Source: a virus. From it: DNA of 64,000 nt. Location of the stretch: IMG/VR virus record IMGVR_UViG_2867339791_000001, positions 7,046 through 71,045 of that record. The stretch is one strand, 5' to 3'. Within the stretch, counting starts at the first letter, position 1, and the number at the start of each line of letters is the position of its first letter. Below the pieces are notes generated by a model. The model was given only the letters and a program-made list of their open reading frames with translations. It was not told the DNA's origin and did not search any database. Of the stretch, positions 6,910-29,522 are shown in pieces. A program made the position numbers and the translations under genes.

Positions 6910-7386
6910 GTGACACGCAGCAACGAGCACTACGACAGCGTTCGCAGTGCCGTGTCGTGTTCGCAGCTTCCCCCACCGGCGCGGCTTCTGATCCACGCCC
7001 TGTGCTTCGAGTACCAGGACAAGCGCCCGGACCACCCGTCCAACTTCAGGGCCACCATCGGCACCCTGCAACGCGTCACCGGCATGGCCCGCTCCACCGT
7101 GGCCGAATACGTCGTCGCACTGGAAGAGGCCGGCTGGCTTGACCGCACCGTCCGGCCCTGGGACGTGACGATCGGCCTGCCCACCTGCCGGCTCCGCGAC
7201 TCGATTCCCGACGAGGTGCGGCAACAACTGATCATCAGGGACGGCTACATCCGTCGCGCCTGCGGCGCCACCACTGACCTCACCGTTGACCACGTCCACC
7301 CCTGGTCGAAGGGCGGAACCGACGACCTCGACAACCTGCAACTCCTTTGCCGGCCCTGCAACAGCCGGAAGGGGGCGCGGGACTGA
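6910..7386 (+). CDS. Winged-HTH + HNH endonuclease fusion
   Basis: TIGTLQRVTGMARSTVAEYVVALEEAGWL (HTH); VDHVHPWSKGGTDDLDNLQLLCRPCNSRK (HNH). Confidence 0.85.
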   Translation: MTRSNEHYDSVRSAVSCSQLPPPARLLIHALCFEYQDKRPDHPSNFRATIGTLQRVTGMARSTVAEYVVALEEAGWLDRTVRPWDVTIGLPTCRLRDSIPDEVRQQLIIRDGYIRRACGATTDLTVDHVHPWSKGGTDDLDNLQLLCRPCNSRKGARD

Positions 7387-8381: not shown

Positions 8382-9073
8382 GCACCGACCACGACACCGA
8401 GCCGGTCCGGGCCGGCGACATCCTCGCCGCCGCCGGCTTCCGACCCGGCGCCGAGCCCGCACAGGTCGAGCCCAAACCGTTCGAGCCCGAACCGTTCGAC
8501 CGCATCGCGTTCCGCACCGACCAGGCTGCCGCCACGCTGGCCGCCCGCATCCCGCCGATGTTCGCCGACGCGACCCCCGACCACCCGCAGGTCGCCGCCT
8601 GGGTACGCCGGTTCCTCGCCAACCGACACGACTTCCCGTCGCTGGTCCTGGTCGGCCCGACCGGCACCGGCAAGACCTGGCTGTGCTGGGGCGCGGTCCG
8701 GGCCGTCGTCGAGGGCGTGGCCGCCCGCGGTGAGGGTCTGCGGTGGGAGGCCACCACCCACCCGGCCCTCAACGCGGCGCTGCGGCCCAGCGCCGACAAC
8801 GCCCACGTCGGGACGCTGGAACGGCTGATGCACGCGGACCTCGTGTTCCTCGACGACCTCGGCGCCGGCAAGCAGACCGAGTGGACCGGCGACGGCCTGC
8901 TGAGGCTGGTCGACTACCGCTGGTCACACCGCCTGCCGATGATCTACTCCGCCAACGCGGTCGGTCAGCCGCTCATCAACGCCGTCGGCGACCGGATCAA
9001 CTCCCGCCTCGGTGACGCAGTCAAGGTCGCGCTCCTAGGCGACGACCGGCGGTGGCGGCGGAGGTCAGCGTGA
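8378..9073 (+). CDS. DnaC/IstB-like AAA+ helicase loader
   Basis: Walker A GPTGTGKT, Walker B LVFLDDLG, R..SRL arginine finger. Confidence 0.88.
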   Translation: MSTDHDTEPVRAGDILAAAGFRPGAEPAQVEPKPFEPEPFDRIAFRTDQAAATLAARIPPMFADATPDHPQVAAWVRRFLANRHDFPSLVLVGPTGTGKTWLCWGAVRAVVEGVAARGEGLRWEATTHPALNAALRPSADNAHVGTLERLMHADLVFLDDLGAGKQTEWTGDGLLRLVDYRWSHRLPMIYSANAVGQPLINAVGDRINSRLGDAVKVALLGDDRRWRRRSA

Positions 9074-10473
9074 CCGGCCTCATGGAGCGCACCGCCACCA
9101 GCCCGGAGGAGTGGGGTCCGCCGCCGACCGACGAGCCGCCGCCGTCGGAGGGCCAGTACGACCGGGTGCCGCCGCACAACGTCAAGGCCGAGCAGATCGT
9201 CCTGGGCGCCATGATGATGTCCGTCGAGGCGATCGTCGACATCGAGCGGATCGTCAAGCCCGGCGACTTCTACCGGCCGCTGCACGGGCGGATCTTCGAG
9301 ACGATCACGAAGCTGGCCGCGCAGCGGGAACCGACCGACCCCATCGCGATCGCCGAGGCACTGGGCCCGGACCTGTCCCTCGTCGGTGGGGCCCCGTACC
9401 TCCACACCTGCTACGCCGCTGTTCCAACGGCCGCCAACGGGCCGTGGTACGCGCGGATCGTCAAGGAGAAGGCCGACCTACGGCGCATCGCCGACGTTGC
9501 CACGTTCATCCGGCAGCGCGTGTTCGAGCTGGGCGACCTGCCGGCCGCCGACCTGGCCGAGCAGGTGCGGGAGCGGCTGAACGCGATCGAGGACGGCACG
9601 GTCGAGGGTGCCCGCCGGTGGGCGCAGATCATCCCGGACGTCGTGAAGGCGATGGAGGCCGCCGCCGACCCGGAGCAGGACGACGCGCCGCGGATCCCCA
9701 CCGGCTTCCGGGACCTGGACCGGCTGCTCGGTGGGGGCTGGAAGGGCGGGCAGCTCATCGTCGTGGCCGCCCGCACCGGCGTCGGCAAGAGCATCGCCAC
9801 CCTCGGGTTCGCGAAGACAGCCGCCGTCGATTGCGAGATCCCGTCGGCGATCGTGTCGCTGGAAATGGACGACGTCGAGATCGGCCTACGGCTGCTGTCG
9901 TCCGGGTCGAAGGTGCCGCACAAGGTCATCCTCACCGGCCTGCTCGACGAACAGGACGCGAGCTGGGTCGAGTGGTTCAAGAGGATCAGCAAGGACGCCC
10001 CGCTGTGGGTCGACGGCACCTCCTGCCAGTCGCTGGCGGACATCCGCTCCCTGGCCCGGAAGCTGCACCGGCAGCACGGGCTGCGGCTGCTGGTCGTGGA
10101 CTACCTGCAACTCGTGGAGACGACGAAGGGGGCGGAGAACCGGCAGCAGGCTGTTGCGGCGATCTCCCGCGGGCTGAAGCTGCTGGCGAAGGAACTCGAC
10201 ATCGCGGTGATCGCCGTGTCGCAGCTGAACCGGGGTCCGGAGCAGCGCGCCGACAAGCGGCCCATCCTCAGTGATCTTCGCGAGTCCGGTGCGATCGAGA
10301 ACGATGCCGACGTGATCATCCTGCTGCACCGGGATGACTACTACGACAAGGAGTCGCCCCGCGCCGGGGAAGCGGACTTGATCGTCGCGAAGCAGCGCGG
10401 CGGCTCCACCGACACGGTGACGGTGGCCGCGCAACTTCACCTGTCCCTCTTCGCGGACATGGCGATCGTCTAG
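9070..10473 (+). CDS. dnaB: Replicative DNA helicase DnaB
   Basis: PPHNVKAEQIVLG; AARTGVGKS; VVDYLQL; SQLNRGPEQRADKRPILSDLRESGAIENDAD. Confidence 0.97.
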   Translation: MTGLMERTATSPEEWGPPPTDEPPPSEGQYDRVPPHNVKAEQIVLGAMMMSVEAIVDIERIVKPGDFYRPLHGRIFETITKLAAQREPTDPIAIAEALGPDLSLVGGAPYLHTCYAAVPTAANGPWYARIVKEKADLRRIADVATFIRQRVFELGDLPAADLAEQVRERLNAIEDGTVEGARRWAQIIPDVVKAMEAAADPEQDDAPRIPTGFRDLDRLLGGGWKGGQLIVVAARTGVGKSIATLGFAKTAAVDCEIPSAIVSLEMDDVEIGLRLLSSGSKVPHKVILTGLLDEQDASWVEWFKRISKDAPLWVDGTSCQSLADIRSLARKLHRQHGLRLLVVDYLQLVETTKGAENRQQAVAAISRGLKLLAKELDIAVIAVSQLNRGPEQRADKRPILSDLRESGAIENDADVIILLHRDDYYDKESPRAGEADLIVAKQRGGSTDTVTVAAQLHLSLFADMAIV

Positions 10474-13224: not shown

Positions 13225-14985
13225 CTAATCGGCCGCACTGACCTCCAGGGTTCGAACTTGGCGAGGAATAGCAACCCGTGCAAGTGGACCCGAATAATAG
13301 TTGCTCCACAGAACTGTCAGCCACTTCTCGTCGGGAAGCACGATCTCAGTAACAGACTCATAATTGAATCTTGAATTCCATAGGTTGATCACGGCCCTCA
13401 CACAATATGCCTTTTCGAGCGAAATCCTCCCTCCTCGAAAGTCCACTCCCACTAAGTCGAAGACCGAATCATGGATCGACGAGTGATCCAGATTAAGGCT
13501 GCCGGCCCAAAATTCGGCGGAATTGAACTGGAGGGTTGCCTTTGGGTGATCATCCCACACCATGTCGCGCTCTTCCACGGGCAACCGTTCGAGCCTCTTA
13601 ACCCAATCAGAGACCTCCCGCGAAGGCTCTTTCCGCTCCGGCCCCTCGAAGTGTGAGTACTCGAAGTCGACCAGACAGCCCTTGAATCTAGCTCCGGCGA
13701 AGTTGACCTCACTACGTGTGAAGCGCGCGTACGCGAATGAAAGGCGCCCTCCAGCGAGGACCGAGTTCGCGAGGGAGATTATGCCCCCCTCGAATCTAGA
13801 TTCGCGAAATGAAACTGTGCCCCCATTCAACAAGATGTGCTCTAGAGTTACCCAACAACCATCTCGACGCGCTCCTCGGACGAGCTTTTCGTCGCGAGCC
13901 GTCTCGCTACTTGACCGTTCTTCATACTGAAGTGAGCCGAGGTAAATGCGGCCGTCCTGGATGATTGAGTCGTTGAAGCTAAGCGGCGCAGAGCCACGTC
14001 TGTCACCAGTCGGGTAGACCGAAAGGCGACCGAAATTGAGCAGCGAACCGTCAATCAGGCAGCCCTCGAAGGAAAGTTGGCCGCCACGAATCACTCCATG
14101 ACTGCACGCAAGTGCGGCGCCCGAAAATTGGGCTTCCACAAAGGACACTTTACCACCGTCAAGGAGTAGGCCACTTAGCGCCACCTCACCCCCCGAAAGC
14201 TGTGCATGGCTAAGGTCTAGACACCCACCAGCCACCACCAGCCCCTTGAGACTGAGTTCGCCTTCCAACAACTTCGCATTCGAGAGGTTCAAGGTCGACC
14301 GCTCAAGCCTTATATCATCAAAACAGGCGCCATCAAGCGTGGCGCCACTCATGTCGAAACGATACCCATCCCACGTCTGGGCCGCCTCCTCCAACAAATG
14401 CTCTCGGATCACCGAGAACACAGTCCGCCGAACCTCCCGCTCGCCACTGTTCTCTATACCCGGCATCACCGGGAGTCGCGCATATGCACAGAGGACATCG
14501 ATACATCGCTGACGGCCCGCCGGCCAATCCTCAGCCAAAGACGCAAGAGAGTAGACGCCGCTTAGCCGAACGGCAGGCGAGTCAGCGTTACCGAGAAGGA
14601 TTACGGCCTGATCAAACCTTTCATTGAGGCTTCGATACACCTCGCGTTGTTCAGACCGTTCACTCCGCTGGTGATCCTTCTCGCCTCGGAGATGCTCAGC
14701 TTCCGTTGCAAGTTGCTTCCTGTAGGCAACAACAAGAGCACCAGCGCCCCCGATGCCACCGGCAACGGCTAGTGCCACCTTCGCGAGGTCCAAGACGTCC
14801 TTGGGCGACGAGGCTCCGATTTTCGTGCGAGGGTTCATCAAGAGGAGCCAACCAACAAAGCCCACCGTGGCCGCTACAGCTAGCGCGAGAATTACGACAA
14901 AAGTAATCGCCATGATAAGAGGAACTCGTCCAACGGAATGGGGGTTCTTAAGGACAGTTGAATTTCGTTCCGCTTCGTCCGTCAT
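13225..14985 (-). CDS. Membrane-anchored pentapeptide-repeat protein (low GC)
   Basis: Two N-terminal TM helices; ERF..AV..LG...AVRL.GVY.LA.LA.DW...RQ.CIDVLCAY; then [VL].F..A.[FL].GG decapeptide-period repeats. Confidence 0.85.
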   Translation of the reverse strand: MTDEAERNSTVLKNPHSVGRVPLIMAITFVVILALAVAATVGFVGWLLLMNPRTKIGASSPKDVLDLAKVALAVAGGIGGAGALVVAYRKQLATEAEHLRGEKDHQRSERSEQREVYRSLNERFDQAVILLGNADSPAVRLSGVYSLASLAEDWPAGRQRCIDVLCAYARLPVMPGIENSGEREVRRTVFSVIREHLLEEAAQTWDGYRFDMSGATLDGACFDDIRLERSTLNLSNAKLLEGELSLKGLVVAGGCLDLSHAQLSGGEVALSGLLLDGGKVSFVEAQFSGAALACSHGVIRGGQLSFEGCLIDGSLLNFGRLSVYPTGDRRGSAPLSFNDSIIQDGRIYLGSLQYEERSSSETARDEKLVRGARRDGCWVTLEHILLNGGTVSFRESRFEGGIISLANSVLAGGRLSFAYARFTRSEVNFAGARFKGCLVDFEYSHFEGPERKEPSREVSDWVKRLERLPVEERDMVWDDHPKATLQFNSAEFWAGSLNLDHSSIHDSVFDLVGVDFRGGRISLEKAYCVRAVINLWNSRFNYESVTEIVLPDEKWLTVLWSNYYSGPLARVAIPRQVRTLEVSAAD

Positions 14986-15093
14986 TCGCATACCGTTTCC
15001 GTTGCACAGTGTCTATAGTGTGTCGCCAGAGCGCGATCGGAGCCTAAGCTGTTCGCTCCTGCAGCACCCTGGTCGAGGGCTCGATCCCATCCC

Positions 15094-17982: not shown

Positions 17983-18660
17983 GTGACCATGACACCCAAA
18001 CCCAACCCCGCCCGGCATGACAGAAACCTCTGCCTCGGCAAAAAGCACGGCAAGCAACGCCCCGGAGCCAAGCACGGCAAGAACCCCGTCCGTGACGAGC
18101 ACGGCAACGACCTGTGCACCCGCCCCGCCGGCTGGGGAACCGACCACCCCGGGATCGGCCGCTGCAAGCTCCACGGCGGAGCCACCACGAGCCACAAGGT
18201 CGCGGGGATGGTGGCCATGGCCGAGCAAGCCGTGAGGACGTACGGCCTGCCGGTCGACGTGTCCCCCACCGACGCCCTGCTTGACGAGGTGAAGTGGACC
18301 GCCGGGCATGTCGCGTGGCTACGCGCCCGCGTGCAGGAGATGGAAGCCGAGGCCCTGTCCTGGGGCAAGCGGTCGACGGTCGACAAGCAGAGTGGCGAAC
18401 ATCCGGGCGTCGACACCACCGAGGGGGCTGCGCCGCCGGTGCTGCTGGACCTGTACCAGCGGGAACGCAAGCACCTCCTCGACGTGTGCAAGGCCGCGAT
18501 CGCCGCCGGCATCGAGGAGCGGCGCGTCCGCTTGGCCGAGTCGCAGGGCGCGCTGCTGGCCGACGTGATCCGCCGCATCCTCGGCGACCTGAACCTGACC
18601 CCGCAGCAGCAGGCCCTTGTGCCCGACGTGGTGCCCCGGCACCTGCGCGCCGTGTCCTGA
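17983..18660 (+). CDS. terS: Terminase small subunit
   Basis: GRCKLHGG (HGGxSTG-like) motif; helical C-terminus; directly upstream of TerL. Confidence 0.75.
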   Translation: MTMTPKPNPARHDRNLCLGKKHGKQRPGAKHGKNPVRDEHGNDLCTRPAGWGTDHPGIGRCKLHGGATTSHKVAGMVAMAEQAVRTYGLPVDVSPTDALLDEVKWTAGHVAWLRARVQEMEAEALSWGKRSTVDKQSGEHPGVDTTEGAAPPVLLDLYQRERKHLLDVCKAAIAAGIEERRVRLAESQGALLADVIRRILGDLNLTPQQQALVPDVVPRHLRAVS

Positions 18661-18683
18661 CCCTCGGTTCGGGGGAGGGCGCT

Positions 18684-20159
18684 GTGGTGTCGCCTTGGGA
18701 GGCCGCGGCCCGGCAGTTCGAGCCGCCGGTGCGCCGGTGGGTGTCGCCGCTGGACCTGGCCTGCGACCTGGACCCGCAGATGGTCCGCACCCCGGCGTTG
18801 GAGGCCATCAACCGCAACCTGGTCGACTTGGCGGAGGGCCGGTTGCCGGGCAACCGACTGGCCGTGTTCATGCCCCCGCAGGAGGGCAAGTCCACGCTCT
18901 GCTCGTATTGGCATCCGCTGTGGCTGCTGGCCGACTTCGACCCGGACCTGCGGATCATCGACGTGTCGTACTCCGACGAGATGGCCCGCCGGTGGGGTGC
19001 CGACGTCAAGCTGGCCGTGGAGACGTACACCGGCGATGAGGGCACGGTGGACCTGGGTGTGCGGCTGCGCGCCGACTCCCGCGCTGCGGGGCGGTGGCAG
19101 GTTGCCGACCGGCGCGGCGGCATCTACTGCGCCGGGGTCGGCGGTTCGATCACCGGTAAGCCGGCGGACTACATCATCGTCGATGACCCGCTGAAGAACA
19201 TGGAGGAAGCCCAGTCGGAGGCGTACCGGCAGCGGGTCATGCGGACCTGGCAGTCCGTGCTGATCCCCCGGATGGGCCCGCGTACGAAGGTCGTGTGGAT
19301 CCAGACGCTGTGGCATGAGGCGGAGCCGATTCAGGAGATCATCAGTGGGGAGACCGGCGCCGACTGGAAGATCATCCGGATTCCGGCGATCGCCGACCGC
19401 CCCGAAGACCCGCTCGGCCGGAAAGTCGGGGAACCGCTGATCTCCGCCCGAGGCAACCGGGACTGGGCGAAGATCCGCAAGGCCGTCGGCGCGTACGTGT
19501 TCTCCGCCCTCTACCAGCAGTCCCCCACCCCCGCCGAGGGCAACCTGTTCAAGCGGATGTGGTGGCGGTACTGGACCGCCCACGGCACCACCCTCACGCT
19601 GGGGCAGCGGACGTACGACCTGCGGGACTGCTGGCGGTTCGCCACCGTCGACCTCGCCGCGTCCACCAAGGCGTCCGCCGACTGGACCGTCATCTCCGCG
19701 TGGGCGCGCACCATCTCCGGCGACCTGGTCCTCCTCGACCGGGTCCGGGCCCACATCAGCGAGAACCAGCACTTCACGCACGCTCGGCCGCTGATCGAAC
19801 GATGGGGCCTCGACACCCTGTTCGTTGAGGCCACCCAGCACGGCATGACCATCACCCGGGAGGCCGCGAACGCCGGAGTGTCCATCACCCCGGTCAGCGC
19901 GGAGACGGACAAGCTGTCTCGCGCTCTGCCCGCCTCGGCGTGGGCGAGCGGCGGCCGGGTGTGGCTGCCGGCCGGCGCGTGGTGGCTCAACGAGTGGGTC
20001 AACGAGCACGCCGCGTTCCCCAACGGGGCGAACGACGACCAGGTGGACACCCTCGCCTACGCGGTGCGGGTCGCCGTCACCCAGGCCGCCCCCGGACCCC
20101 CGCCGCCGCCGGCCTCGCCGCCGGCCGACGAGGTCGACTGGAACAGCGAGCCGCTGTAG
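18684..20159 (+). CDS. terL: Terminase large subunit
   Basis: PPQEGKST Walker A, IIVDDP Walker B, SALYQQSP, TVDLAAS..DWT, FPNGANDDQVD nuclease motif. Confidence 0.95.
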   Translation: MVSPWEAAARQFEPPVRRWVSPLDLACDLDPQMVRTPALEAINRNLVDLAEGRLPGNRLAVFMPPQEGKSTLCSYWHPLWLLADFDPDLRIIDVSYSDEMARRWGADVKLAVETYTGDEGTVDLGVRLRADSRAAGRWQVADRRGGIYCAGVGGSITGKPADYIIVDDPLKNMEEAQSEAYRQRVMRTWQSVLIPRMGPRTKVVWIQTLWHEAEPIQEIISGETGADWKIIRIPAIADRPEDPLGRKVGEPLISARGNRDWAKIRKAVGAYVFSALYQQSPTPAEGNLFKRMWWRYWTAHGTTLTLGQRTYDLRDCWRFATVDLAASTKASADWTVISAWARTISGDLVLLDRVRAHISENQHFTHARPLIERWGLDTLFVEATQHGMTITREAANAGVSITPVSAETDKLSRALPASAWASGGRVWLPAGAWWLNEWVNEHAAFPNGANDDQVDTLAYAVRVAVTQAAPGPPPPPASPPADEVDWNSEPL

Positions 20160-20177
20160 CAGGACGGGGGTGGCTCG

Positions 20178-23100
20178 ATGAACGCCCCCACCTCGCTGAT
20201 CGGCATGGTCGACGACAACCAGTACGGCACGATCGTCACCGACGTCTACGAACACATCCCCGACCTGCTGTACCCGGCGTCGGTGCCGATCTACGCGCAG
20301 ATGCGCCGCGACCCCCGCCTGGCCGCCGTGGTCGACGGTTACGGGTTGCAGATCCGCCGCGCCCAGTGGCAGCTCGACGGCGCCGGCTGCCGGCCCGAGG
20401 TGACCCAGTTCGTGGCTGACTGCCTGGGTCTCAACGTGGTCGGTGAGGACAAGGCTACCGGTGCCCGCCGCCGCGGCGTGTCGTGGAACGACCACCTGCG
20501 CTCCGCCCTGCTCAGCCAGGTGTGGGGGCACTACGCGTTCGAGTTGGAAGCGGAGATCGTGGACGGCCGGCGTGCCCGCCTCACGACCCTCGCCGAGCGC
20601 ATCCCTGCGACGATCATGGCAATCCACGCCGACCCGCGCACTGGCGCCCTGCTCGGCATCGACCAGCAGATCACCTCCCGGCAGCCGTCCCCGCAGATCC
20701 CGGCCGACCGGCTCGTCTTCTACTCCCGCAACCGGGAAGGTTCCGGCTGGCAGGGCACGAGCCTGCTGCGGCCGGCGTACGCGCCGTGGCTGCTGAAGCG
20801 GGAGATGCTGCGCGTCAACGCAATCTCCAACCGGCGCTGGGGTGCCGGCGTCCCCGTCGCCGAAGCCAACCCCGGCACCAACCCGTCGCCCGCCCAGATG
20901 GCCGAGGCGCAGCGGATGGTGTCCGCGGCCCGCGCCGGGGACCAGGCTGGCGCGTCGGTGCCGCCCGGGTTCACCATGCGCATCGTCGGCCTGTCGGGCA
21001 GCATCCCCGACACCCTCGGCTTCATCCGGTTCCTCAACCAGGAGATGTCCGGGTCGGTGCTGATGCCGCACCTGGACCTGGGCACCACCCAGACCGGCGC
21101 CCGCGCCCTCGGCGAGTCCTTCATCGACTCGTGGACCCTCGCCCTGGAATCGGAGGCGGAGGCGATCGCCGACACCGCCACCCGGCAGGTGTGCGTGCCG
21201 ATCGTCGACTGGAACTGGGGCGAGGACGAACCCGTCCCCCGCGTCGTCGTGTCCGGTGTCGGCTCGCGCCGTGAGGTGACCGCCGAGTCGCTACAGCTGC
21301 TCCTCAACTCGGGGGCGCTGTCGGCAGATCCGAGGCTGGAAGCGTGGGTGCGCCGCGAGTACCGCCTTCCGGAGCGGGACCCGGACGCCCCGAGGCCCCT
21401 GCCGGCCGGAGCGCCGGCCCGCGTTCCTGACCGGCCTCAGGTCGACGAGGAACGCGCCCAGGAGGAAGAAGAGACCCCGGGGGGCGGCGACGGTGAGCGG
21501 GTCGCCGCCGCCGCCCCACCGGCTGTCGATGTGCAGGGCATGGACGCCGCCTACCGGCAGGCCGTCGAGGACATGACGGCCGCCTGGTCGCAGGCGTCCG
21601 GGCCCCTGGTGGCTGCTCTGGCCGCTGCTGTGGCCGCCGAGGTGGCCGGTGGGGCGCTCGCCGGCCTGGCCGCCCTCGCCATCCCCGCCACCGCCACCAG
21701 CGCGCTCACCCGGGCCGTCACCGACGGCATGACCACGCTCGCCCGCGCATCCGCTTCGGCCGCGGCCGTCGAGGTCCGCCCCATCGCCCGCATCAACCCC
21801 GCCCTGTCCCGCACCAGCCTCGGCCGGATCGCCGAGAACGCCCAGGTGGCCACCCACCTGATCGTGGCCGGCTACCGGTCCGCGGCGACCCGCGTCGCGC
21901 TGGCCCACGCCGGCGTCAAGGCCACCGTCGAGCAGGTCCGCCAGGCCGTCACCACGGCCCTCACGGACCTCTCTGAGCCGAAGACCGGCGGCCTGGTCGC
22001 GGGCAACCTGTCCGCCGCGGCCGGCACCGCGCAGGGCATCGGCCGGGAACAGGTGCTCGGGGAGCTGCCCGACGGCGTCCGGTTCCGGGCGTCGGAGGAG
22101 CTGGACCGCAACACCTGCCGGCCGTGCCGGCTCGTGGACGGCGCGGAGTACGCCACGTTCGAGGACGCGTTGGCCGACTACCCGACCGGACGGTACCTGT
22201 ACTGCGCCGGCCGGGAACGCTGCCGTGGCTTCATCTACGCCGTCATCGACGAGGACACCGCCGAGGTGGCCGCCCGCCGCAACGGCTTCAACCCGAACCA
22301 GCGGCGCGACGACCACGGCATGTGGACCCGCGGCGGCGGGGCCGGGTCGGCGAGCGGCGTCGAATCAGCTCACGCCGCCCTGCTTCGAGGCGAGGCCGTC
22401 ACCGTCGACCCGGAGAACATCGACGCGCTGATGCGCCTGTCCGCGGGCGGGCCGATCTACAACCTGTCCCGCTTGCAGGTCAAGGGCGAGAACCCGAACC
22501 TGTTCCGCCGCAGCGCACGCGACGTTTCCCGAGCAGAGATGCCGCAGCTGTCCCGGCAGGACGGCAGCCTCGACGCGTTCGTTCGGACGCTCGCCGAGCG
22601 GGGCATCGGGGTCCGGCGGGAGGAGGTCGACCCGCGCCGGCTGACCGCCACCCAGAACCAGCTCGAAGGGGCGAAGGTCAGCAAGCTCTACGCCACGCTG
22701 AAGGCTGAGGGCTGGCCCGAGGGCTCCGCCATCTTCGTCTCCCGCGACGGTGTGGTCCTCGACGGGCACCACCGGTGGGCGGCGGCTGCGGCCGTGGCGG
22801 TGACCGGCCCGATGGAGATCACGGTGCTCCGCGTCGACACCGACATCGACACCCTGTTGGACCTCGCACACGAGGTGTCCGCTCTGCGTAAGGGCTTGGA
22901 GGACGTCGCCGTGACCGCCAGCCGGGTTTACACCTTCGAGGTGACGGAGATCGTCACGGACACCGACGATGGTGTCCCCGAGGCGCTGTTCGGCGACGAG
23001 GTGGCGGCCCGCCGGAAGGGCTTCGACCCGAACCAGAAGCGGGACGAGGACGGCAAATGGACCCGGTTCCTACCCGGCCGCAGGGGCGGGAAGTCCGACG

Positions 23101-24272
23101 GCAGCGGCAACGGTCGCAACGGCGGCGGGGACGGCGACGCCAGTTCCTACGGGCTGATGAGCGACGAGGAGTTCGAGGCCCGGCAGAAGATGATCGCCGA
23201 CGTCATCGGCAAGGCGCGGAAGACGCTGGCCACCGAGGTCACCCACACCACCGCCGACGGTGCGTGGCAACCGGAGCGTGACCGGATGCACCGGGAGATC
23301 GCCGCCGAGCTGTACGCGAAGGCCGACAAGGTGCCTCGCGGCGGCAAGGCGGTCATCGCCGGTGGCCTCGGCGGCGCGGGCAAGAGCACGGTCCTGCGGG
23401 ACCACGCCGGCATCGACCAGTCGCAGTACCTCACCCTGAACCCGGACGACGTCAAGGAGCTGATGGCCGAACGCGGGCTGATCCCCGAGGTGCCCGACCA
23501 CCCGGACCTGTCACCCATGGAACGGGCCGCCCTCATCCACGAGGAGTCGTCCCGCATCACGAAGCTCCTCGCCGACATGGCGTACCGCGACCGCCGCAAC
23601 ATCATCTGGGACATCACCATGTCCTCCGAGAGCGGCGTCGTCTCCCGGCTCGACGACCTCGACCGGAACGGCTACGAGACGCGCGGCGTGTTCGTCGACA
23701 TCCCGGTGGAAGTGTCCGTGGAGCGGGCGTTGTCCCGCTACCGGAACGGCGCCGACCGCTACCGGCAGGGCAAGGGTCTCGGTGGGCGGTTCGTGCCTCC
23801 GGCGATCATCCGGGCGCAGGAAACCCGCAAGGGCCGGACGGTCAACCGTGAGGTGTTCGACGGGCTGCAAGAGCGGTTCGACGGCTGGGCGATCTACGAC
23901 AACAGCGTCACCGGTCGCGCCCCGAAGCTCGTGGCTGAGGACTACCGGTCGACCGACTTCGGCGCCGACGGCGTGAAGAAGATCGACCAGGCGGTGTCCA
24001 ACGCGGGCGTGTCCGGGCTGAAGCGGAAGGTCACCTTCCGCAAGCGTGACTGGGACGGCCCGTTCAAGCAGCGGGTGGACGTGTTCACCAAGGGGGACCG
24101 GCGTGTTGAGGTCGAGCACCTTCCCGGCGGGGCGATCCTCGCCGAACTGATCTTCGAAAAGGGCAAGCGCCGGATGGTGCTCGGCCGACTGACCAGCCCG
24201 TCGGCCCGTCAACTCGCCGGATTGCTGCGCGAGTTGGCGAAACCGTTCAACCCGTCTGAGACAATGGGGTAG
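20178..24272 (+). CDS. Portal-MuF(minor head)-ParB-like-Zeta toxin-like kinase fusion protein
   Basis: N-terminal ~400 aa Mu gp29/DUF935-type portal; MuF-like TCRPC..CAGRERCRG; ParB/Srx DGHHRW (22761); P-loop GGLGGAGKST (23361) with NPDDVK, WDITM, GRFVP, YDNS Zeta-type motifs; single uninterrupted frame. Confidence 0.85.
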   Translation: MNAPTSLIGMVDDNQYGTIVTDVYEHIPDLLYPASVPIYAQMRRDPRLAAVVDGYGLQIRRAQWQLDGAGCRPEVTQFVADCLGLNVVGEDKATGARRRGVSWNDHLRSALLSQVWGHYAFELEAEIVDGRRARLTTLAERIPATIMAIHADPRTGALLGIDQQITSRQPSPQIPADRLVFYSRNREGSGWQGTSLLRPAYAPWLLKREMLRVNAISNRRWGAGVPVAEANPGTNPSPAQMAEAQRMVSAARAGDQAGASVPPGFTMRIVGLSGSIPDTLGFIRFLNQEMSGSVLMPHLDLGTTQTGARALGESFIDSWTLALESEAEAIADTATRQVCVPIVDWNWGEDEPVPRVVVSGVGSRREVTAESLQLLLNSGALSADPRLEAWVRREYRLPERDPDAPRPLPAGAPARVPDRPQVDEERAQEEEETPGGGDGERVAAAAPPAVDVQGMDAAYRQAVEDMTAAWSQASGPLVAALAAAVAAEVAGGALAGLAALAIPATATSALTRAVTDGMTTLARASASAAAVEVRPIARINPALSRTSLGRIAENAQVATHLIVAGYRSAATRVALAHAGVKATVEQVRQAVTTALTDLSEPKTGGLVAGNLSAAAGTAQGIGREQVLGELPDGVRFRASEELDRNTCRPCRLVDGAEYATFEDALADYPTGRYLYCAGRERCRGFIYAVIDEDTAEVAARRNGFNPNQRRDDHGMWTRGGGAGSASGVESAHAALLRGEAVTVDPENIDALMRLSAGGPIYNLSRLQVKGENPNLFRRSARDVSRAEMPQLSRQDGSLDAFVRTLAERGIGVRREEVDPRRLTATQNQLEGAKVSKLYATLKAEGWPEGSAIFVSRDGVVLDGHHRWAAAAAVAVTGPMEITVLRVDTDIDTLLDLAHEVSALRKGLEDVAVTASRVYTFEVTEIVTDTDDGVPEALFGDEVAARRKGFDPNQKRDEDGKWTRFLPGRRGGKSDGSGNGRNGGGDGDASSYGLMSDEEFEARQKMIADVIGKARKTLATEVTHTTADGAWQPERDRMHREIAAELYAKADKVPRGGKAVIAGGLGGAGKSTVLRDHAGIDQSQYLTLNPDDVKELMAERGLIPEVPDHPDLSPMERAALIHEESSRITKLLADMAYRDRRNIIWDITMSSESGVVSRLDDLDRNGYETRGVFVDIPVEVSVERALSRYRNGADRYRQGKGLGGRFVPPAIIRAQETRKGRTVNREVFDGLQERFDGWAIYDNSVTGRAPKLVAEDYRSTDFGADGVKKIDQAVSNAGVSGLKRKVTFRKRDWDGPFKQRVDVFTKGDRRVEVEHLPGGAILAELIFEKGKRRMVLGRLTSPSARQLAGLLRELAKPFNPSETMG

Positions 24273-24277
24273 AGGAG

Positions 24278-24541
24278 GTGATGGAAGTGTCGAGCGTCCG
24301 TGACGTGCTTGACCGGCTGGCAGCCGGGGAGATCACGCTGAAGCAGGCCGCCGAGGACTTCCGCACCCGCAAGTGGCCGGCACAGCCCGCCACCACCGAG
24401 GAGCAGGCGTGGGGTGTCCACGATGACCCGGCCCCAGCCGAGGACTCGTGGGACCTCGTGAACGCCGACTCCCGGCTCACCAGCGACCAGTACAAGGTGC
24501 TCGCCGAGGCGTACACCGAGGCGATCTCCGCCAAGAGCTGA
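24278..24541 (+). CDS. Small acidic/helical protein, candidate antitoxin/immunity
   Basis: RBS GAGGAGG directly after the fusion-gene stop; followed by a hairpin. Confidence 0.7.
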   Translation: MMEVSSVRDVLDRLAAGEITLKQAAEDFRTRKWPAQPATTEEQAWGVHDDPAPAEDSWDLVNADSRLTSDQYKVLAEAYTEAISAKS

Positions 24542-24579
24542 TCGCAGCCCTGTAGCTCTCTCGCCCGGCCGGGCGTGAC

Positions 24580-24616
24580 CTCGGCCCCCTGACCAGTCAT
24601 TGGTGAGGGGGCCGAG
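24580..24616. terminator. Long hairpin, terminator-like
   Basis: CTCGGCCCCCT..ACCA / TGGT..AGGGGGCCGAG. Confidence 0.55.
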
Positions 24617-24853
24617 TTGTCCCGCGTCGAGATCACCACCGCTGGTCACAGCATCGTCGTGGACGCCGATGGGCCGCTCGACCAGGTCGCAGGCAAGGCA
24701 CTGTACCTGTGGGAGCGGACCCGTGATCCGCGTATCGACCGCGTCTACGGAGCGGTCGGCTTCTCCATGGAACGCTCCGACCCCGCCTACGTGGGCAGGC
24801 CGGACGTCGACCTCCACCATCCCGATCCGCAGAGAGGACGGGATGGCCCATGA
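24617..24853 (+). CDS. Small hypothetical protein
   Basis: TTG start; stop overlaps the next ATG. Confidence 0.5.
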   Translation: MSRVEITTAGHSIVVDADGPLDQVAGKALYLWERTRDPRIDRVYGAVGFSMERSDPAYVGRPDVDLHHPDPQRGRDGP

Positions 24854-25104
24854 AGCCGACCGTCGGCCGCATCGTGCAGTACGTCTCCTACGGCACCCCC
24901 GGCGGTGAGTACACCAGCCAGTGCCGGGCCGCGATCGTCGCCGGAGTCCCCGACGGCGCCCCGCCCTCGATCGGACCCGACGGGCCCGCCCGGCAGCTCG
25001 ACCTGGCCGTGCTCAACCCCACCGGCCTGTTCTTCAACCGCTGCGCGCAGGACGAGACCGGCAAGGCCGGCGGCACCTGGCACTGGCCCGAGCGGGAGGA
25101 GTAA
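24850..25104 (+). CDS. Small phage protein (MKPTVGRIVQY family)
   Basis: P.VGRIV.Y...CRAAIVA...DLAVLNPTG...GTWHWPER pattern common in phage head regions. Confidence 0.75.
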   Translation: MKPTVGRIVQYVSYGTPGGEYTSQCRAAIVAGVPDGAPPSIGPDGPARQLDLAVLNPTGLFFNRCAQDETGKAGGTWHWPEREE

Positions 25105-25107
25105 CCG

Positions 25108-27423
25108 ATGCCCTCCACAGCCCCGCTGGCCCGCCGCGACGGCGTCGAGCTGGTCCGCACCGGCCGCTGGGACATTTCCACCGGCCAGTGGACCGCCGCC
25201 CGGGAAGACCTCGCCGCCGCCGTGGCCGCCCTGTCCTGCCCGGCCATCCAGAAGCCCATCATCAAGATCGGCCACACGGACACCCGGTTCACCCCCGGCG
25301 ACGGGGAACCCGCGATCGGCTGGTACGAGAACCTGCGCACCACCGACGGTGGACACACCCTCGTCGCCGACCAGGTCGCCCCCGCCTGGCTCAGCGACGT
25401 GCAGGCCGCCGCCTGGCCGAACCGGTCCGTCGAGGGCTCCTACAACTACCGGTGCGGGCTCGGCCACACCCACCCGTTCGTGCTGACCGCCGTGGCGCTG
25501 CTCGGCGTGACCCCTCCCGGGGTGTCCACCCTCACCAGCCTGAACAGCCTCGACGACGTGCGCGCCCTGTACGGGCTGGCCGCATCATCCCGGCAGCCCG
25601 GCGTAGCCGAAGTGCGGATCGCCGCGTCGGTGGGCGGTGACCTGACGCTGCACGTCGCCGCCGCCGAGCAGACCGAGCACACGGGCGCGATGGTCGCCCT
25701 CATCCCCCGCGCCGCCGACGCCGCCCGCCTGGCCGTCGAGGGCGGCGAGCCGGTCGACGAGCTGCACCTGACCCTGCTCTACCTCGGCAAGGCCGTCGAC
25801 TTCTCCCCGAAGGCGCAGGCCGCGGTCGTGGACGCGGTACGCCGCGCCACCACCGACACCCCGCCCGTCGAAGCGCACGCGTTCGCGGTGTCCGTGTTCA
25901 ACCCGCCCGGCGTGACCAGCGCGGACGGCCGGGACCGGGACACCTGCCTCGTCCTCGGGATCGGCGGCGACGACCTCGAATACGTGCAGGCCGTGGCCGC
26001 ATCCGCCGCCCGGCACGCCGCCCTTCAATTCCAGGTCGACGTGAGCAAGCCGCACCGGCCGTGGGTGCCGCACGTGACGCTCACCTACACCGACGACCTG
26101 TCGCAGATCCCGGCGCTGGCCGCCCGCACCGGCCCGGTCGTCTTCGACCGAGTGCGGGTCGCGTTCGCCGGCCAGCACATCGACATCCCCCTCACCGCGG
26201 TCGACCTCGCCGACATCTACGGCCCGCAGGCGGTCGACCCGGTCGCCGCCGCCGCAGCCGACACCGACGGCAACCAGCTCAAGCGGTACTGGCTGCACGG
26301 CGAGGGCCTGAAGAAGTGGGCGAACAACCCCCACCCATGGACCGCCCTGTACCGGCACCTGAAGAAGCACGTCGACCCCGAGCGGGCCAAGCGCATCGCG
26401 AGCGAGTGGTTCCACGAGCACTTCGGCTACTGGCCGGGCTCGAAGGAGCACCGCAAGACCGCCGCCTCGACCGGCCTGCCAGGAGAGGACACCATGCCCA
26501 ACCCGACCCCCAGCCTGACCGAGCGGATCCACCAGGCGTGGAACGCCGCCGGCCAGCCCGAGCAGCAGTGGATCGTCGAGGCCGCCGAGGACGAGGTCAT
26601 CGTCATGGACAACACCGACCGCAGCTTGGTGCGGGTGCCGGTGACGGTCGACGGCGACAGCATCTCGTTCGGCGCCCCGCAGCGGGTCCGCACCGCGTAC
26701 GTGCCGGCCGACGAGCAGGTGGCCGCCTCCCGGATGGTGTTCGCCTCCGCCGAGGAGTCCCGGCCGGCCCAGCCGCCGGCCGCGCCGGCCCCGGAGCCGC
26801 CCGCCGACCCGGCCGGCGAACCCACCACCGACCCGGCCGAGGGCGAGCCCGCCCCGGTCGAGCCCGCCGAGCCCGCCACCGGCGAGCCGGCCCCCGTTCC
26901 CCCGGCCGCCGAGCCGGAGCCCAACACCGATCCGAAGGAGGACCCTGTGTCCACCCTGAGCACTGACGTGCGCTCGCGGCTCGGCCTGCCCGAGGACGCC
27001 GACGACAACGCGGTCATGGCCGCGCTCGCCGACCTGAAAGCGAAGGCCGACGCCGCCCCGAACCCCGAGCAGGTCGCCGCCTCGACGGCCGCGACCAACG
27101 AGATGAAGGCGGAGATCACCCGCCTGTCGACGGAACTGGCGAAGATCAACGCCAGCGCGGCGGCCGACGCGAAGAAGGCCCTCTTCGACGGCGCCGTCCA
27201 GACCGGCCGCATCAAGCCGGCCGACCGGGCGACGTGGGAGGAGCGGTACGACCGCGCCCCCGAGGTCACCGCCGACATCCTCGCCTCCCTGGCCCCGAAC
27301 ACCGCCGTCCCCGTGGCCGCGTCCGGGTTCACCGGCGACGTCGACATGGCCGGCGTCGACACCGAGTACGAGGCGCTGGTGGCCGGCATCGACGGCCCGT
27401 TCGCCGAGAAGGGAGCCAACTGA
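25108..27423 (+). CDS. Prohead protease (Mu I-like) - 2H phosphoesterase - scaffold fusion
   Basis: Protease-like N-terminus (IKIGH, PNRSVEG, VALLGVTPPG); two HxT motifs (25765, 26071); Pro/Glu linker; coiled-coil scaffold C-terminus; position between portal and capsid. Confidence 0.82.
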   Translation: MPSTAPLARRDGVELVRTGRWDISTGQWTAAREDLAAAVAALSCPAIQKPIIKIGHTDTRFTPGDGEPAIGWYENLRTTDGGHTLVADQVAPAWLSDVQAAAWPNRSVEGSYNYRCGLGHTHPFVLTAVALLGVTPPGVSTLTSLNSLDDVRALYGLAASSRQPGVAEVRIAASVGGDLTLHVAAAEQTEHTGAMVALIPRAADAARLAVEGGEPVDELHLTLLYLGKAVDFSPKAQAAVVDAVRRATTDTPPVEAHAFAVSVFNPPGVTSADGRDRDTCLVLGIGGDDLEYVQAVAASAARHAALQFQVDVSKPHRPWVPHVTLTYTDDLSQIPALAARTGPVVFDRVRVAFAGQHIDIPLTAVDLADIYGPQAVDPVAAAAADTDGNQLKRYWLHGEGLKKWANNPHPWTALYRHLKKHVDPERAKRIASEWFHEHFGYWPGSKEHRKTAASTGLPGEDTMPNPTPSLTERIHQAWNAAGQPEQQWIVEAAEDEVIVMDNTDRSLVRVPVTVDGDSISFGAPQRVRTAYVPADEQVAASRMVFASAEESRPAQPPAAPAPEPPADPAGEPTTDPAEGEPAPVEPAEPATGEPAPVPPAAEPEPNTDPKEDPVSTLSTDVRSRLGLPEDADDNAVMAALADLKAKADAAPNPEQVAASTAATNEMKAEITRLSTELAKINASAAADAKKALFDGAVQTGRIKPADRATWEERYDRAPEVTADILASLAPNTAVPVAASGFTGDVDMAGVDTEYEALVAGIDGPFAEKGAN

Positions 27424-27425
27424 CC

Positions 27426-27785
27426 ATGGGCGCCTACGAGCCGAAGTACCTGTACTCCGACCAGATCAACGCCACCTTCTCGGCGAACACCACCGGCGGC
27501 CAGTCGGTCATCGTGACCGGCAACGGCACCGTCGGCCCGGCCACCGCCGGCAGCCCCGCGTGCGTGGGTGTCGCCGCGAACGACGTGGCCGCGAACCAGC
27601 GCGGCGCCTACTTCCCGCGCGGCAAGGTCCACGTCTCGAAGGCGTCCGGCGCGATCACCGCCGGAGCCCGCGTCGACACCGGCGCCGCCGGCACCGTCGC
27701 CTCCGGCGCCGCCGGGGTCAACAACGTCGGCATCGCCCTCACCACGGCCGCCGACGGCGCGGACGTGGAGTGGATGGAGATCTGA
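27426..27785 (+). CDS. Head decoration/capsid cement protein (DUF2190-like)
   Basis: Gly/Ala/Thr-rich, GVAANDVAA..AITAGARV..GIALT.AADG; directly before MCP. Confidence 0.8.
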   Translation: MGAYEPKYLYSDQINATFSANTTGGQSVIVTGNGTVGPATAGSPACVGVAANDVAANQRGAYFPRGKVHVSKASGAITAGARVDTGAAGTVASGAAGVNNVGIALTTAADGADVEWMEI

Positions 27786-27952
27786 CCCACCCCGCTGTCG
27801 TGACGCCCGCCGGCCGCCACTCCTGACCGGCGGGCGCCCGCACACCCCGCACCACAACCCCAGACCCGCGCACCACCAAGGCCCCACGCATCCCCGCGTG
27901 CGGGCCTCTTCGTCGTGCCCGCCAGCCGGGCCACCTTGGAAGGACGACCCGA

Positions 27953-28888
27953 ATGCCGGGCGCTTACCCTCCGGCCGCACCCACGCTGGCCGGCGACCTG
28001 CTCACCATCCACCGCCTGCTCCAGAACCCGACGTACCTGCGTCGCAGGCTGCGCACGATCGCCGAGCTGCGGTTCGTCGCGGACCGCATCCTCACCGGCC
28101 GCTTCCGCACCAGCGGCGGCGCGATCGCGTTCGAGCAGTCCGAGCCGATCATGAACAGCCGTCCCGTCGAGGCCGTCGCTCCCGGCGGCGAGTACCCGCG
28201 GGACAGCACGCCCGAGGGCACCGCCGCGCTGGCGGCGGTCAGCAAGTGGGGCCAGGCGGTCCCGCTGACCGACGAGAAGCTGAAGCGGTCCGTCTACATG
28301 GGCCAGGAGCTGAACCGGGCCCTGATCAAGACCGCGAACACGGTCATCTCGAAGGTCGACCGGCTCGCCACCTCCGCCGTGGCGTCGGCCGTCACCAACT
28401 CGATCGCCGCGTCGGCCGCGTGGAACGCCGCCTCGCCGATGCTGTTCCGCGATGTCGAGCTGGCCGCGGCGAAGATCGTGGACCTCAACCAGGGCTACAA
28501 CCCGCGCGCCGTGCTCATGTCCACCACCAAGTACGCGCTGCTGATCACCGACCCGGCGATCGCCGCGCTGCGCCGCCGCGAAGCGTCGGACAACCCGATC
28601 TACGGCGGCGACATCGACCGGCTCGGCAAGTACGAGATCGTCACCACCGCCGTCGCGAACCTGCCGTCCGACGACGTGTGGGTGTACGACCCCGACCAGC
28701 TCGGCGGCATGGCCGACGAGACCGAGGTGGACCCGGGCTACGCCACCCTGCCGAACAACCTTCAGTACAAGACCAAGCGGATCGACGAGCGGGACTCGTG
28801 GGACATCTGGGCCCGCCGGATCACCGTCCCGGTCGTGCAGGAGCCGGGCGCGGCGATCCGCCTCACCGGCACCGGTTCGCTGGGCTGA
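27953..28888 (+). CDS. Major capsid protein
   Basis: 311 aa after protease and decoration genes; HK97-fold-like pattern (YNPRAVLMS, VPVVQEP). Confidence 0.85.
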   Translation: MPGAYPPAAPTLAGDLLTIHRLLQNPTYLRRRLRTIAELRFVADRILTGRFRTSGGAIAFEQSEPIMNSRPVEAVAPGGEYPRDSTPEGTAALAAVSKWGQAVPLTDEKLKRSVYMGQELNRALIKTANTVISKVDRLATSAVASAVTNSIAASAAWNAASPMLFRDVELAAAKIVDLNQGYNPRAVLMSTTKYALLITDPAIAALRRREASDNPIYGGDIDRLGKYEIVTTAVANLPSDDVWVYDPDQLGGMADETEVDPGYATLPNNLQYKTKRIDERDSWDIWARRITVPVVQEPGAAIRLTGTGSLG

Positions 28889-28902
28889 GAGGGGACCTGA
28901 TC

Positions 28903-29439
28903 GTGGCTACCTACCAGCTCGTGGGCGAGTGCGCCTACGTGTCCACCAACACGGCGCTCGGCCGGGCGAAGGTGCTCGTGCACAAGGGCGCGCTCATCCC
29001 CGCCGACGCGCCGGAGCTGAAGCACCTGCTCGACATCGGCATGGCCGCCCGCGTGGGCGGCGACGAGACGGGCGGGGTCAACGCGGCCGGTGAGCCGGCC
29101 GCGGTCGCCGACCGCACCGTGGTCCCCGCCTCGGACGGCTCCCGGGCGATGGAGCCCGTCGAGGAGCAGACCGCGACCGGCACGGCGCACGGCCAGTCCC
29201 TCAACGTCAGCAACGCCGACGCGGAGCCGACCGAGGAGGACAAGGCTGCCGCCGAGACGGCCGCCCGCCGCCAGGCCGCCCGGGAGAAGCTGGCCGCCCT
29301 CGGCGGCAAGGCGCCCGACGGCCGCGCGTCCACCGACGTGCTCGTGGAGTACCTGGTCGCCCAGGGCGGCAACTACGACGACCTCATCCGGTCCGAGCGC
29401 TCGGACCTGGTCGAGACGGTCAAGTCCCGGCAGGGCTGA
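28903..29439 (+). CDS. Head-associated hypothetical protein
   Basis: RBS GAGAGGGG; open frame after MCP. Confidence 0.7.
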   Translation: MATYQLVGECAYVSTNTALGRAKVLVHKGALIPADAPELKHLLDIGMAARVGGDETGGVNAAGEPAAVADRTVVPASDGSRAMEPVEEQTATGTAHGQSLNVSNADAEPTEEDKAAAETAARRQAAREKLAALGGKAPDGRASTDVLVEYLVAQGGNYDDLIRSERSDLVETVKSRQG

Positions 29440-29450
29440 CCCCCTGGTCC

Positions 29451-29491
29451 GGTCCGGCCGCCCGAACTCCCCAGCGCCGGGCGGCCGGACC
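29451..29491. terminator. Perfect 14-bp hairpin
   Basis: GGTCCGGCCGCCCG / CGGGCGGCCGGACC after a stop codon. Confidence 0.6.
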
Positions 29492-29522
29492 ACCCCTGCT
29501 CAACCCCTGAACGGAGGCCGCC

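Follow-up and report, generated by a model that had tools for sequence, protein, structure and literature searches.

A prophage reading frame joins a Mu-type portal to MuF-like, ParB/Srx-fold and zeta/AvrRxo1-type kinase modules as candidate polyvalent head cargo

Why would a phage portal protein share one uninterrupted reading frame with a P-loop kinase? The question is raised by a gene at positions 20178..24272 (+) of a 64,000-nucleotide stretch of viral DNA (positions 7,046 to 71,045 of IMG/VR record IMGVR_UViG_2867339791_000001), here called the window, to which all coordinates refer. The element is a prophage of a high-GC actinomycete; the window has a G+C content of 70.7% and lies at 937 to 1001 kb of a 2.3-Mb contig in a 7.18-Mb genome. 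The 1364-residue, 147-kDa product of the gene (P0001) comprises, in order, a portal, a MuF-like segment, a ParB/Srx-fold module, a zeta-type kinase and a basic tail, much as an earlier note on this DNA had read it from the letters, with domain coordinates that were right to within a few tens of bases. With a probability of about 0.6, we read this protein as a portal-anchored phage polyvalent cargo whose kinase would be packaged, freed and injected, with the product of a small adjacent gene, Orf87, protecting the producing cell or the lysogen.

The portal assignment was examined with the profile formerly called DUF935 (PF06074, Portal_Mu). Residues 38 to 397 (20289..21368, +) matched it from profile position 3 to 336 of 336, with 160 bits against a cut-off of 23.9 (E = 1e-46), and also matched phrog_113 (1.5e-69). 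The gene starts 18 bases past the end of the large terminase gene (18294..20159, +; Terminase_6N/6C and phrog_38, E = 2e-93). On its 3' side lie three small open reading frames (ORFs), a gene for a 771-residue head protease/scaffold and then the major capsid protein gene (27953..28888, +; Phage_capsid_4; phrog_1650, 1e-72). This terminase-portal-protease-capsid context supports the proposal that the chain is anchored at the portal and carries cargo of the head interior. The frame has no internal stop, and the G+C content at third codon positions (GC3) is 0.88 to 1.0 in every module; because this value is uniformly high in one frame, a hidden frame change is ruled out. The identical fusion protein is recorded on two contigs. 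In-frame internal starts with Shine-Dalgarno-like motifs were few and unconvincing (at residues 79, 697 and 912).

The kinase module (residues 992 to 1255; 23151..23942, +) was recognized by profile, by predicted structure and by residue mapping. Residues 1057 to 1224 matched Zeta_toxin (PF06414) with 69 to 72 bits against a cut-off of 22.3 (E = 4e-19 to 4e-20), and the module also matched AAA_33. The AlphaFold model had a predicted local distance difference test (pLDDT) score above 94 in the kinase core, and comparison with known folds gave VIA Z scores of 17.0 for zeta, 17.0 for AvrRxo1 and 16.2 for PezT. Polynucleotide kinases were next best: Clostridium thermocellum Pnk reached a Z score of 13, and both T4 Pnk and Pnkp1 scored near 10.7. 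The Walker A motif, GLGGAGKS, lies at 23364-23387 and the catalytic Asp1090 at 23445-23447. In a profile alignment, K1069 corresponds to zeta K46, and D1090 corresponds to zeta D67 and AvrRxo1 D193; the NPD position of AvrRxo1 is confirmed by a D193N primer in PMC5087710. Both residues are invariant among 37 homologues, as are R1187 and R1204. Since the Walker A lysine, the catalytic aspartate and the invariant residues are kept, the kinase looks catalytically intact, and the concern that it might be dead finds no support in its residues. A phmmer search of the kinase plus tail against PDB sequences returned P-loop noise only, and a profile search was needed.

The earlier note had suggested UDP-N-acetylglucosamine (UDP-GlcNAc, or UNAG) as a target for assay. 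The profile alignment places Lys or Arg at the position of zeta E100 and Ser at that of R120; E116 becomes Asp and T118 is kept. We take zeta E100 and R120 to be the UDP-GlcNAc ligands. The module also shares three motifs with AvrRxo1 (an N-terminal W.PER..LH, NPD and H.ESS), of which W.PER..LH and H.ESS are present in AvrRxo1 and not in zeta. Because E100 and R120 are not kept and AvrRxo1-specific motifs are shared, UDP-GlcNAc is a doubtful substrate. The UNAG residues are likewise missing from AvrRxo1 (PMC5087710).

Two copies of a short linker set off the cargo modules, so that each module stands behind its own delimiter, as had been proposed. Copy 1 occupies residues 697 to 718 (VAARRNGFNPNQRRDDHGMWTR; 22266..22331, +) and copy 2 residues 942 to 963 (VAARRKGFDPNQKRDEDGKWTR; 23001..23066, +). 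The DNA copies are 85% identical, and residues 699 to 718 and 944 to 963 have in common the motif ARRxGFxPNQxRDxxGxWTR, which in its longer form reads VAARRxGFxPNQxRDxxGxWTR. A loose version of the motif matched 58 of 190 related proteins but no shuffled sequence. One of these relatives, P0046, has the order MuF, linker, ParB-like, linker, DUF7178, with the same ParB-like module between its linkers.

A sister prophage, L022 in Micromonospora sp. WMMD737, bears directly on the origin of the fusion. It is collinear with window positions 18875-29495 at approximately 79 to 81% DNA identity, window-specific stretches excepted, and its portal gene encodes a 745-residue portal-kinase. That protein is 83% identical to residues 1 to 444, continues through a single linker (VAARRRGFDPNQRRDRDGKWTR) that both window copies match, is 76% identical to residues 939 to 1254, and stops. 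The DNA missing from L022 consists of window positions 21511-23000 (1.49 kb; the MuF-like segment, a linker and the ParB-like module) and a tail of about 330 bp. As the alignment reads, either the fusion gained a MuF-plus-ParB cassette at the linker on a portal-kinase backbone, or the sister lost that cassette. Cargo cassettes thus appear, from these comparisons, to be exchanged at the short linker.

The gene at 24278..24541 (+), orf87, encodes a small acidic protein (87 codons; pI 4.4). In all 9 loci examined (the window, L015, L016, L018, L019, L022, L023, L024 and a Joint Genome Institute [JGI] contig), an orf87-like gene lies directly downstream of a gene with a zeta-type kinase module, which bears out the earlier note's suggestion that this gene matters to the kinase. 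Three of them (L023, L024 and the JGI contig) encode the kinase as a protein of its own, 306 to 426 residues long. The idea that orf87 is a mere conserved piece of head polyproteins was set aside once it was found beside such kinases, and for the same reason a dedicated kinase partner is the favored reading. Orf87 is likely, from its gene order, a candidate immunity protein, antitoxin or regulatory partner of the kinase. None of the 65 clusters of its family is named; weak matches to the VbhA antitoxin model came from 9 of 50 members, and no similarity of Orf87 to epsilon was detectable. Loci with orf87 patterns were found on two viral contigs only. Among 50,697 cultured-phage records, the kinase matched only Mycobacterium phage Phrappuccino/Settecandela (34% identity, E = 3e-29), where it forms the C-terminus of gp57, a 1088-residue protein that adjoins the major head gene and is not fused to a portal. 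The 90-residue Phrappuccino gp58, which follows, gave a weak full-length alignment to the orf87 profile (hhalign E = 3.7e-4, probability 37%); both genes are annotated as hypothetical.

The L023 locus (L023:6056-9801, Micromonospora haikouensis) holds a 313-residue kinase, an 84-residue orf87-like protein, a 126-residue gene product and two ADP-ribosyltransferase (ART) genes, with genes for an integrase and a PIN protein close by; none of this belongs to a head operon. Its gene content resembles that of an island of toxin/immunity cassettes. In the window, orf87 is immediately followed by a perfect GC-rich stem of 11 bp (CTCGGCCCCCT ... AGGGGGCCGAG, 24580-24616), which reaches up to the TTG start codon of the small ORF that comes next (24617-24853); lacking a T-run, the stem does not qualify as a standard terminator.

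A second cargo-bearing head protein of the operon is the 771-residue, Mu gpI-like protease/scaffold (25108..27423, +), which has a phrog_3894 N-terminus, a 2H phosphoesterase (2_5_RNA_ligase2/LigT) embedded at residues 210 to 340 and a Mu-like_Pro C-terminus. A phrog_6439 segment is also inserted mid-protein, beside the 2H domain. The L022 counterpart has 765 residues and likewise carries the 2H domain. The window, L018, L019 and L022 all have a kinase, an orf87-like gene and a 2H domain in this order, and the same series forms a single polypeptide in the giant proteins P0014 and P0015, in which the segment directly after the kinase is 57% identical to Orf87 and the 2H domain comes next. In L015, a portal gene is followed by a fusion of protease N-terminus, MuF, ART and kinase, then by an orf87-like gene and a separate gene starting with the same ParB-like module as in the fusion (the region noted for this linkage is L015:9484-9861). 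By this gene order, the trio of kinase, orf87 and ParB-like module is linked even when unfused.

The module between the linkers (residues 723 to 913; 22344..22916, +) contains R..MPQ, ATQ and DGHHRW motifs, the last at residue 862 (22761-22778). The earlier note had named it a ParB/Srx domain on the strength of DGHHRW; the fold and the conserved motif stood, and the expected ParBc profile match did not. A Pfam search of residues 700 to 1030 returned no match, and phrog_2859 (1e-25; function unknown) is the sole family model covering the module. The AlphaFold model (pLDDT 86) resembled ParB-N, Noc, Srx, KorB, SbnI or 1vk1 in all of its top 23 PDB structure matches (probability up to 1.0, best E = 3e-4), with the C-terminal half being what matches, and it also matched ParB and Noc in Swiss-Prot. 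Template modelling (TM) scores were low, approximately 0.3, because the core makes up only about 100 of 222 residues. The sequence profile reaches PDB entry 1vk1 and an archaeal free serine kinase through DGHHRWA. An Arg-containing motif of the nucleotide-binding type is conserved after the central strand, and the module is predicted to bind nucleotides within the fusion protein.

The module belongs to a widespread family, with 2713 representatives (at 50% identity) found at E ≤ 1e-3 in a library of 1.84 billion proteins. Members are solo proteins of about 220 to 280 residues or lie inside proteins of up to 4757 residues. Across 63 sequences, R..MPQ, one Gln and D-G-H-H do not vary; the remaining R and W of DGHHRW are at least 90% conserved. 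None of these 63 members matched Pfam, which places the module outside the curated subfamilies ParBc (PF02195) and ddrB-ParB (PF18763). A DdrB-like ParB identity was ruled out: P1 DdrB fits PF18763 (2e-39), and hhalign of it to the module profile gave nothing. A family that no Pfam or NCBIfam model covers is thereby documented (P0041-P0190). At least 16 further proteins combine a ParB-like module with a kinase on one chain, and either of the two can come first.

The segment between portal and first linker (residues 447 to 700; 21516..22277, +) ends in C..C...C.G..RCRG and is homologous to the post-portal part of the portal fusions P0002-P0013. Its last approximately 85 residues match gp5 of Arthrobacter phage KBurrousTX (BLASTP 2e-18), annotated as a "MuF-like minor capsid protein," and phrog_595 at 5e-6, versus 9e-48 for gp5 itself; no other part of the segment aligns. 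It is also fused directly after the portal, the position of MuF/gp7-type proteins. The Phage_Mu_F model named in the earlier note (PF04233) was not matched at E ≤ 10, nor was PF06152, by residues 400 to 740 or 420 to 720. An NCBIfam search at E ≤ 1 returned nothing for the whole protein, the MuF-like segment or Orf87; hhalign found no link between the MuF-like alignment and that of PF04233-bearing proteins, both being shallow (11 and 5 sequences); and a PDB profile search with the segment gave noise only. In Jamet et al. (2017, BMC Biol, PMC5576092), actinobacterial MuF versions required dedicated MuF3/MuF4 profiles. "MuF-like" is therefore used here as a reasonable label that the similarities weakly support, without demonstrated family membership.

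Related proteins show how variable this arrangement is. Single-frame portal-MuF proteins of 700 to 816 residues, or portals alone, occur in other relatives from the same bacterial family; there are also portal-MuF-ART fusions (P0002 and P0003), portal-kinase fusions (P0006, P0016 and L022) and MuF-kinase fusions (P0014, P0015, P0036 and P0038). The cargo survey that the earlier note had called for thus finds MuF, ART, kinase, ParB-like and DUF7178 modules swapped behind portal or MuF, and the cargo position of relatives holds ART, peptidase or other kinase-like domains. Co-fused partners in relatives are NAD or nucleotide enzymes (ART, NUDIX and RelA/SpoT). The closest other protein to the fusion, among 5.8 billion clusters, covers 51% of the query, and no counterpart of the order portal-MuF-ParB-kinase-tail was found in the databases searched. 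The gene and its element were absent from all 37 same-genus genomes sampled, and neither the kinase nor the ParB-like module nor orf87 is duplicated in the host genome.

The fusion had been judged unusual in the earlier note. That judgment is not supported, given the further ParB-kinase proteins above and the phage polyvalent proteins defined by Iyer et al. (2017, J Bacteriol, PMC5512222), among which effector fusions to MuF or portal domains are listed. Their examples include a zeta-toxin-like kinase joined to MuF, ParB-superfamily hubs and the attachment of 2H domains to either MuF or portal. The fusion protein resembles them in carrying several effector domains on one polypeptide encoded among late head genes, for which packaging and injection are predicted; here a head-anchoring part and at least two effector-type domains lie between terminase and capsid genes. 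A later paper (Iyer et al. 2022, PMC9503650) describes head proteins, MuF among them, that carry ART and Nudix domains, as well as MuF or portal fusions of 2H. Differences remain: the ParB module here is not of the DdrB-like family described in PMC5512222, and that source has the kinase act on the cell wall (UDP-GlcNAc), a reading disfavored by the residues found here. By its domains, the protein is of a class known since 2017, and none of the databases searched contains its four-module order a second time; since variable combinations define polyvalent proteins, a unique order still falls within the class.

The MuF polymorphic toxins of temperate phages, which come with immunity genes (PMC5576092), offer a second comparison. 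They too begin with a head-protein domain and end in a toxin-type domain that varies, and a small gene lies downstream; in the related phage KBurrousTX, gp5 carries a Gln-deamidase toxin domain and is followed by an annotated Imm35-type gene. In the fusion protein, by contrast, MuF lies inside the chain, the cargo comprises two modules, and the Pfam-based MuF1/MuF2 models are not matched. The text of PMC5576092 does not speak of zeta, ParB or kinase, and the portal appears in it only as a neighboring gene. Zeta, PezT and AvrRxo1, with their small inhibitors epsilon, PezA and AvrRxo1-ORF2, are alike in fold, Walker A lysine and catalytic aspartate, and in having an acidic protein of about 90 residues encoded next door. 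The partner gene, however, lies downstream here and not upstream, and the kinase forms part of a virion protein. L022 is the nearest of all in portal, kinase, linker, partner gene and 2H protein, and lacks the MuF-plus-ParB cassette and the tail.

The reading that we favor can be set out as a series of steps. A portal is a dodecamer with its C-terminal crown towards the capsid interior, and the MuF protein gp7 of SPP1 binds the portal and is ejected. Because the portal C-terminus faces inward, up to twelve cargo chains would be built into each procapsid. The neighboring head protease would free them, possibly at or near the linkers, and the freed cargo would exit with the DNA and act in the new cell before phage gene expression. 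There the kinase would phosphorylate a small nucleotide-type metabolite (NAD-like or a sugar nucleotide, probably not UDP-GlcNAc), and the ParB/Srx module may serve as a nucleoside triphosphate-dependent, DNA- or nucleotide-directed enzyme. Epsilon inhibits zeta and AvrRxo1-ORF2 inhibits AvrRxo1, and Orf87 would block the kinase in like manner in the producing or lysogenic cell.

Several observations weigh against this sequence of events. A cargo chain fused to the portal can leave only if it is cut, and domain searches found no MPTase-type or other peptidase domain in the fusion protein, whereas an MPTase self-processing peptidase is the usual processing domain of polyvalent proteins. The MuF assignment fails the Pfam, NCBIfam and hhalign tests. 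The kinase profile scores zeta, AvrRxo1 and the RNA-repair enzyme Pnkp1 nearly equally (Pnkp1 at 6.6e-9, equal to AvrRxo1), and sequence cannot tell the substrate. The orf87-like module is fused in cis between kinase and 2H domain in P0014 and P0015, which would be unexpected of a classical immunity protein and is just as compatible with a functional partner.

The main rival for what the cargo does is a rather unlikely alternative, in which kinase, Orf87 and 2H phosphoesterase would cooperate after injection as a counter-defence or repair unit and not as a toxin. In a repair version, RNA ends cut by host ribonucleases would be healed by a 5'-OH kinase and a 2',3'-cyclic phosphodiesterase, an arrangement present in fungal/plant tRNA ligase; in a signal version, nucleotide immune signals would be phosphorylated and degraded, with Orf87 an adaptor or specificity subunit and not an immunity protein. 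The recurrent kinase/orf87-like/2H order, separate or fused, suits such a unit, as do the next-best fold of polynucleotide kinases, the profile score of Pnkp1 and the NAD/nucleotide enzymes co-fused elsewhere, and signal degradation is what Iyer et al. propose for head-fused 2H domains (PMC5512222 and PMC9503650). Yet zeta and AvrRxo1 match the structure better (Z of 17 versus 13), the window genes scanned included no RNA ligase, and Iyer et al. (PMC5512222) never saw these 2H versions together with ligases. Kinase-orf87 pairs without 2H, near ART toxin genes and an integrase in L023 or on the JGI contig, are also toxin-immunity-like.

It is improbable that the modules only serve head morphogenesis or DNA handling and stay on the portal, never delivered, with the ParB-like module gripping the packaged DNA end and the kinase acting as an assembly ATPase. 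ParB-superfamily proteins do bind DNA, SPP1 gp7, which binds both the portal and DNA, lacks a toxin domain (PMC5576092), and no self-processing peptidase was found in the fusion protein. Against this, the L022 protein has neither MuF nor ParB and other relatives have no kinase, so that the cargo modules seem dispensable for head building; ART, peptidase and other kinase-like domains take their place in relatives, and the kinase-orf87 pair also occurs away from head genes. Mis-assembly, genes joined by a frameshift or a dead prophage gene would fit the missing full-length homologue (51% best coverage) and the absence of the element from the same-genus genomes. Such an origin is very improbable: GC3 is uniform in one frame, catalytic and invariant residues are all kept, each junction type is present in independent natural sequences, with portal-MuF, portal-kinase and portal-MuF-ART each a single frame in relatives, and the adjoining head genes are intact and approximately 80% identical to those of a second prophage. 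The L022 comparison also disposes of an assembly artefact.

Set beside the favored reading of injected, portal-anchored cargo, a broader proposal is speculative and, taken as a whole, unlikely. It holds that kinase, Orf87 and 2H form one virion-delivered anti-defence unit and that the linker is a portable junction. The unit would blunt host defence at DNA entry through a nucleotide-type target, for example by AvrRxo1-like 3'-phosphorylation of NAD, by acting on an NAD-derived or cyclic immune signal, or by healing cleaved RNA. The linker, approximately 22 residues of the form VAARRxGFxPNQxRDxxGxW, would be a cassette recombination site plus a processing or capsid-addressing signal.

Four points are new here: the cassette difference from L022 at the linker, the kinase-orf87 linkage in nine of nine loci, the recurrent 2H follower and the AvrRxo1-like residue pattern. 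They were not found in the available parts of PMC5512222, PMC5576092, PMC9503650 and PMC5087710. The general picture drawn in 2017 is unchanged by this locus. What the locus provides is a clean experimental handle on the zeta/AvrRxo1-like kinase, which is among the commonest cargo types, and this handle rests on a prophage pair differing by one cassette, a constant partner gene, a recurrent 2H domain and a residue pattern that speaks against UDP-GlcNAc. Capsid-packaged enzymes act ahead of any phage gene being read; to our knowledge, few have been tested, among them T4 Alt and internal proteins, the P1 Dar proteins and the N4 virion RNA polymerase.

The C-terminal tail (residues 1256 to 1364, 109 residues; 23943..24269, +) is basic, as had been stated (pI 10.4), and is an orphan. 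Homologues were found neither in a search of 5.8 billion proteins nor in Atlas nor in 400 genomes of the order, residues 1220 to 1364 had no Pfam match, and the tail is absent from L022, the approximately 80% identical sister. It is predicted to form a small alpha/beta domain (helix, beta-sheet, helix; pLDDT 50 to 80). A resemblance to the TriTu immunity protein (Z = 6.9) fell inside the tool's stated noise range and was not built on.

Element ends (integrase, att sites) were not located within the part of the window examined. Upstream of the head genes lie a 588-residue pentapeptide-repeat protein (13225-14991, −) and a DnaB-type helicase (9052-10473, +). A DUF5131 protein (785-2809, +; E = 7.5e-70) is encoded in the replication region of the element; its match falls into two stretches split by a LAGLIDADG_3 domain, and because this domain interrupts the match, the gene probably contains an intein.

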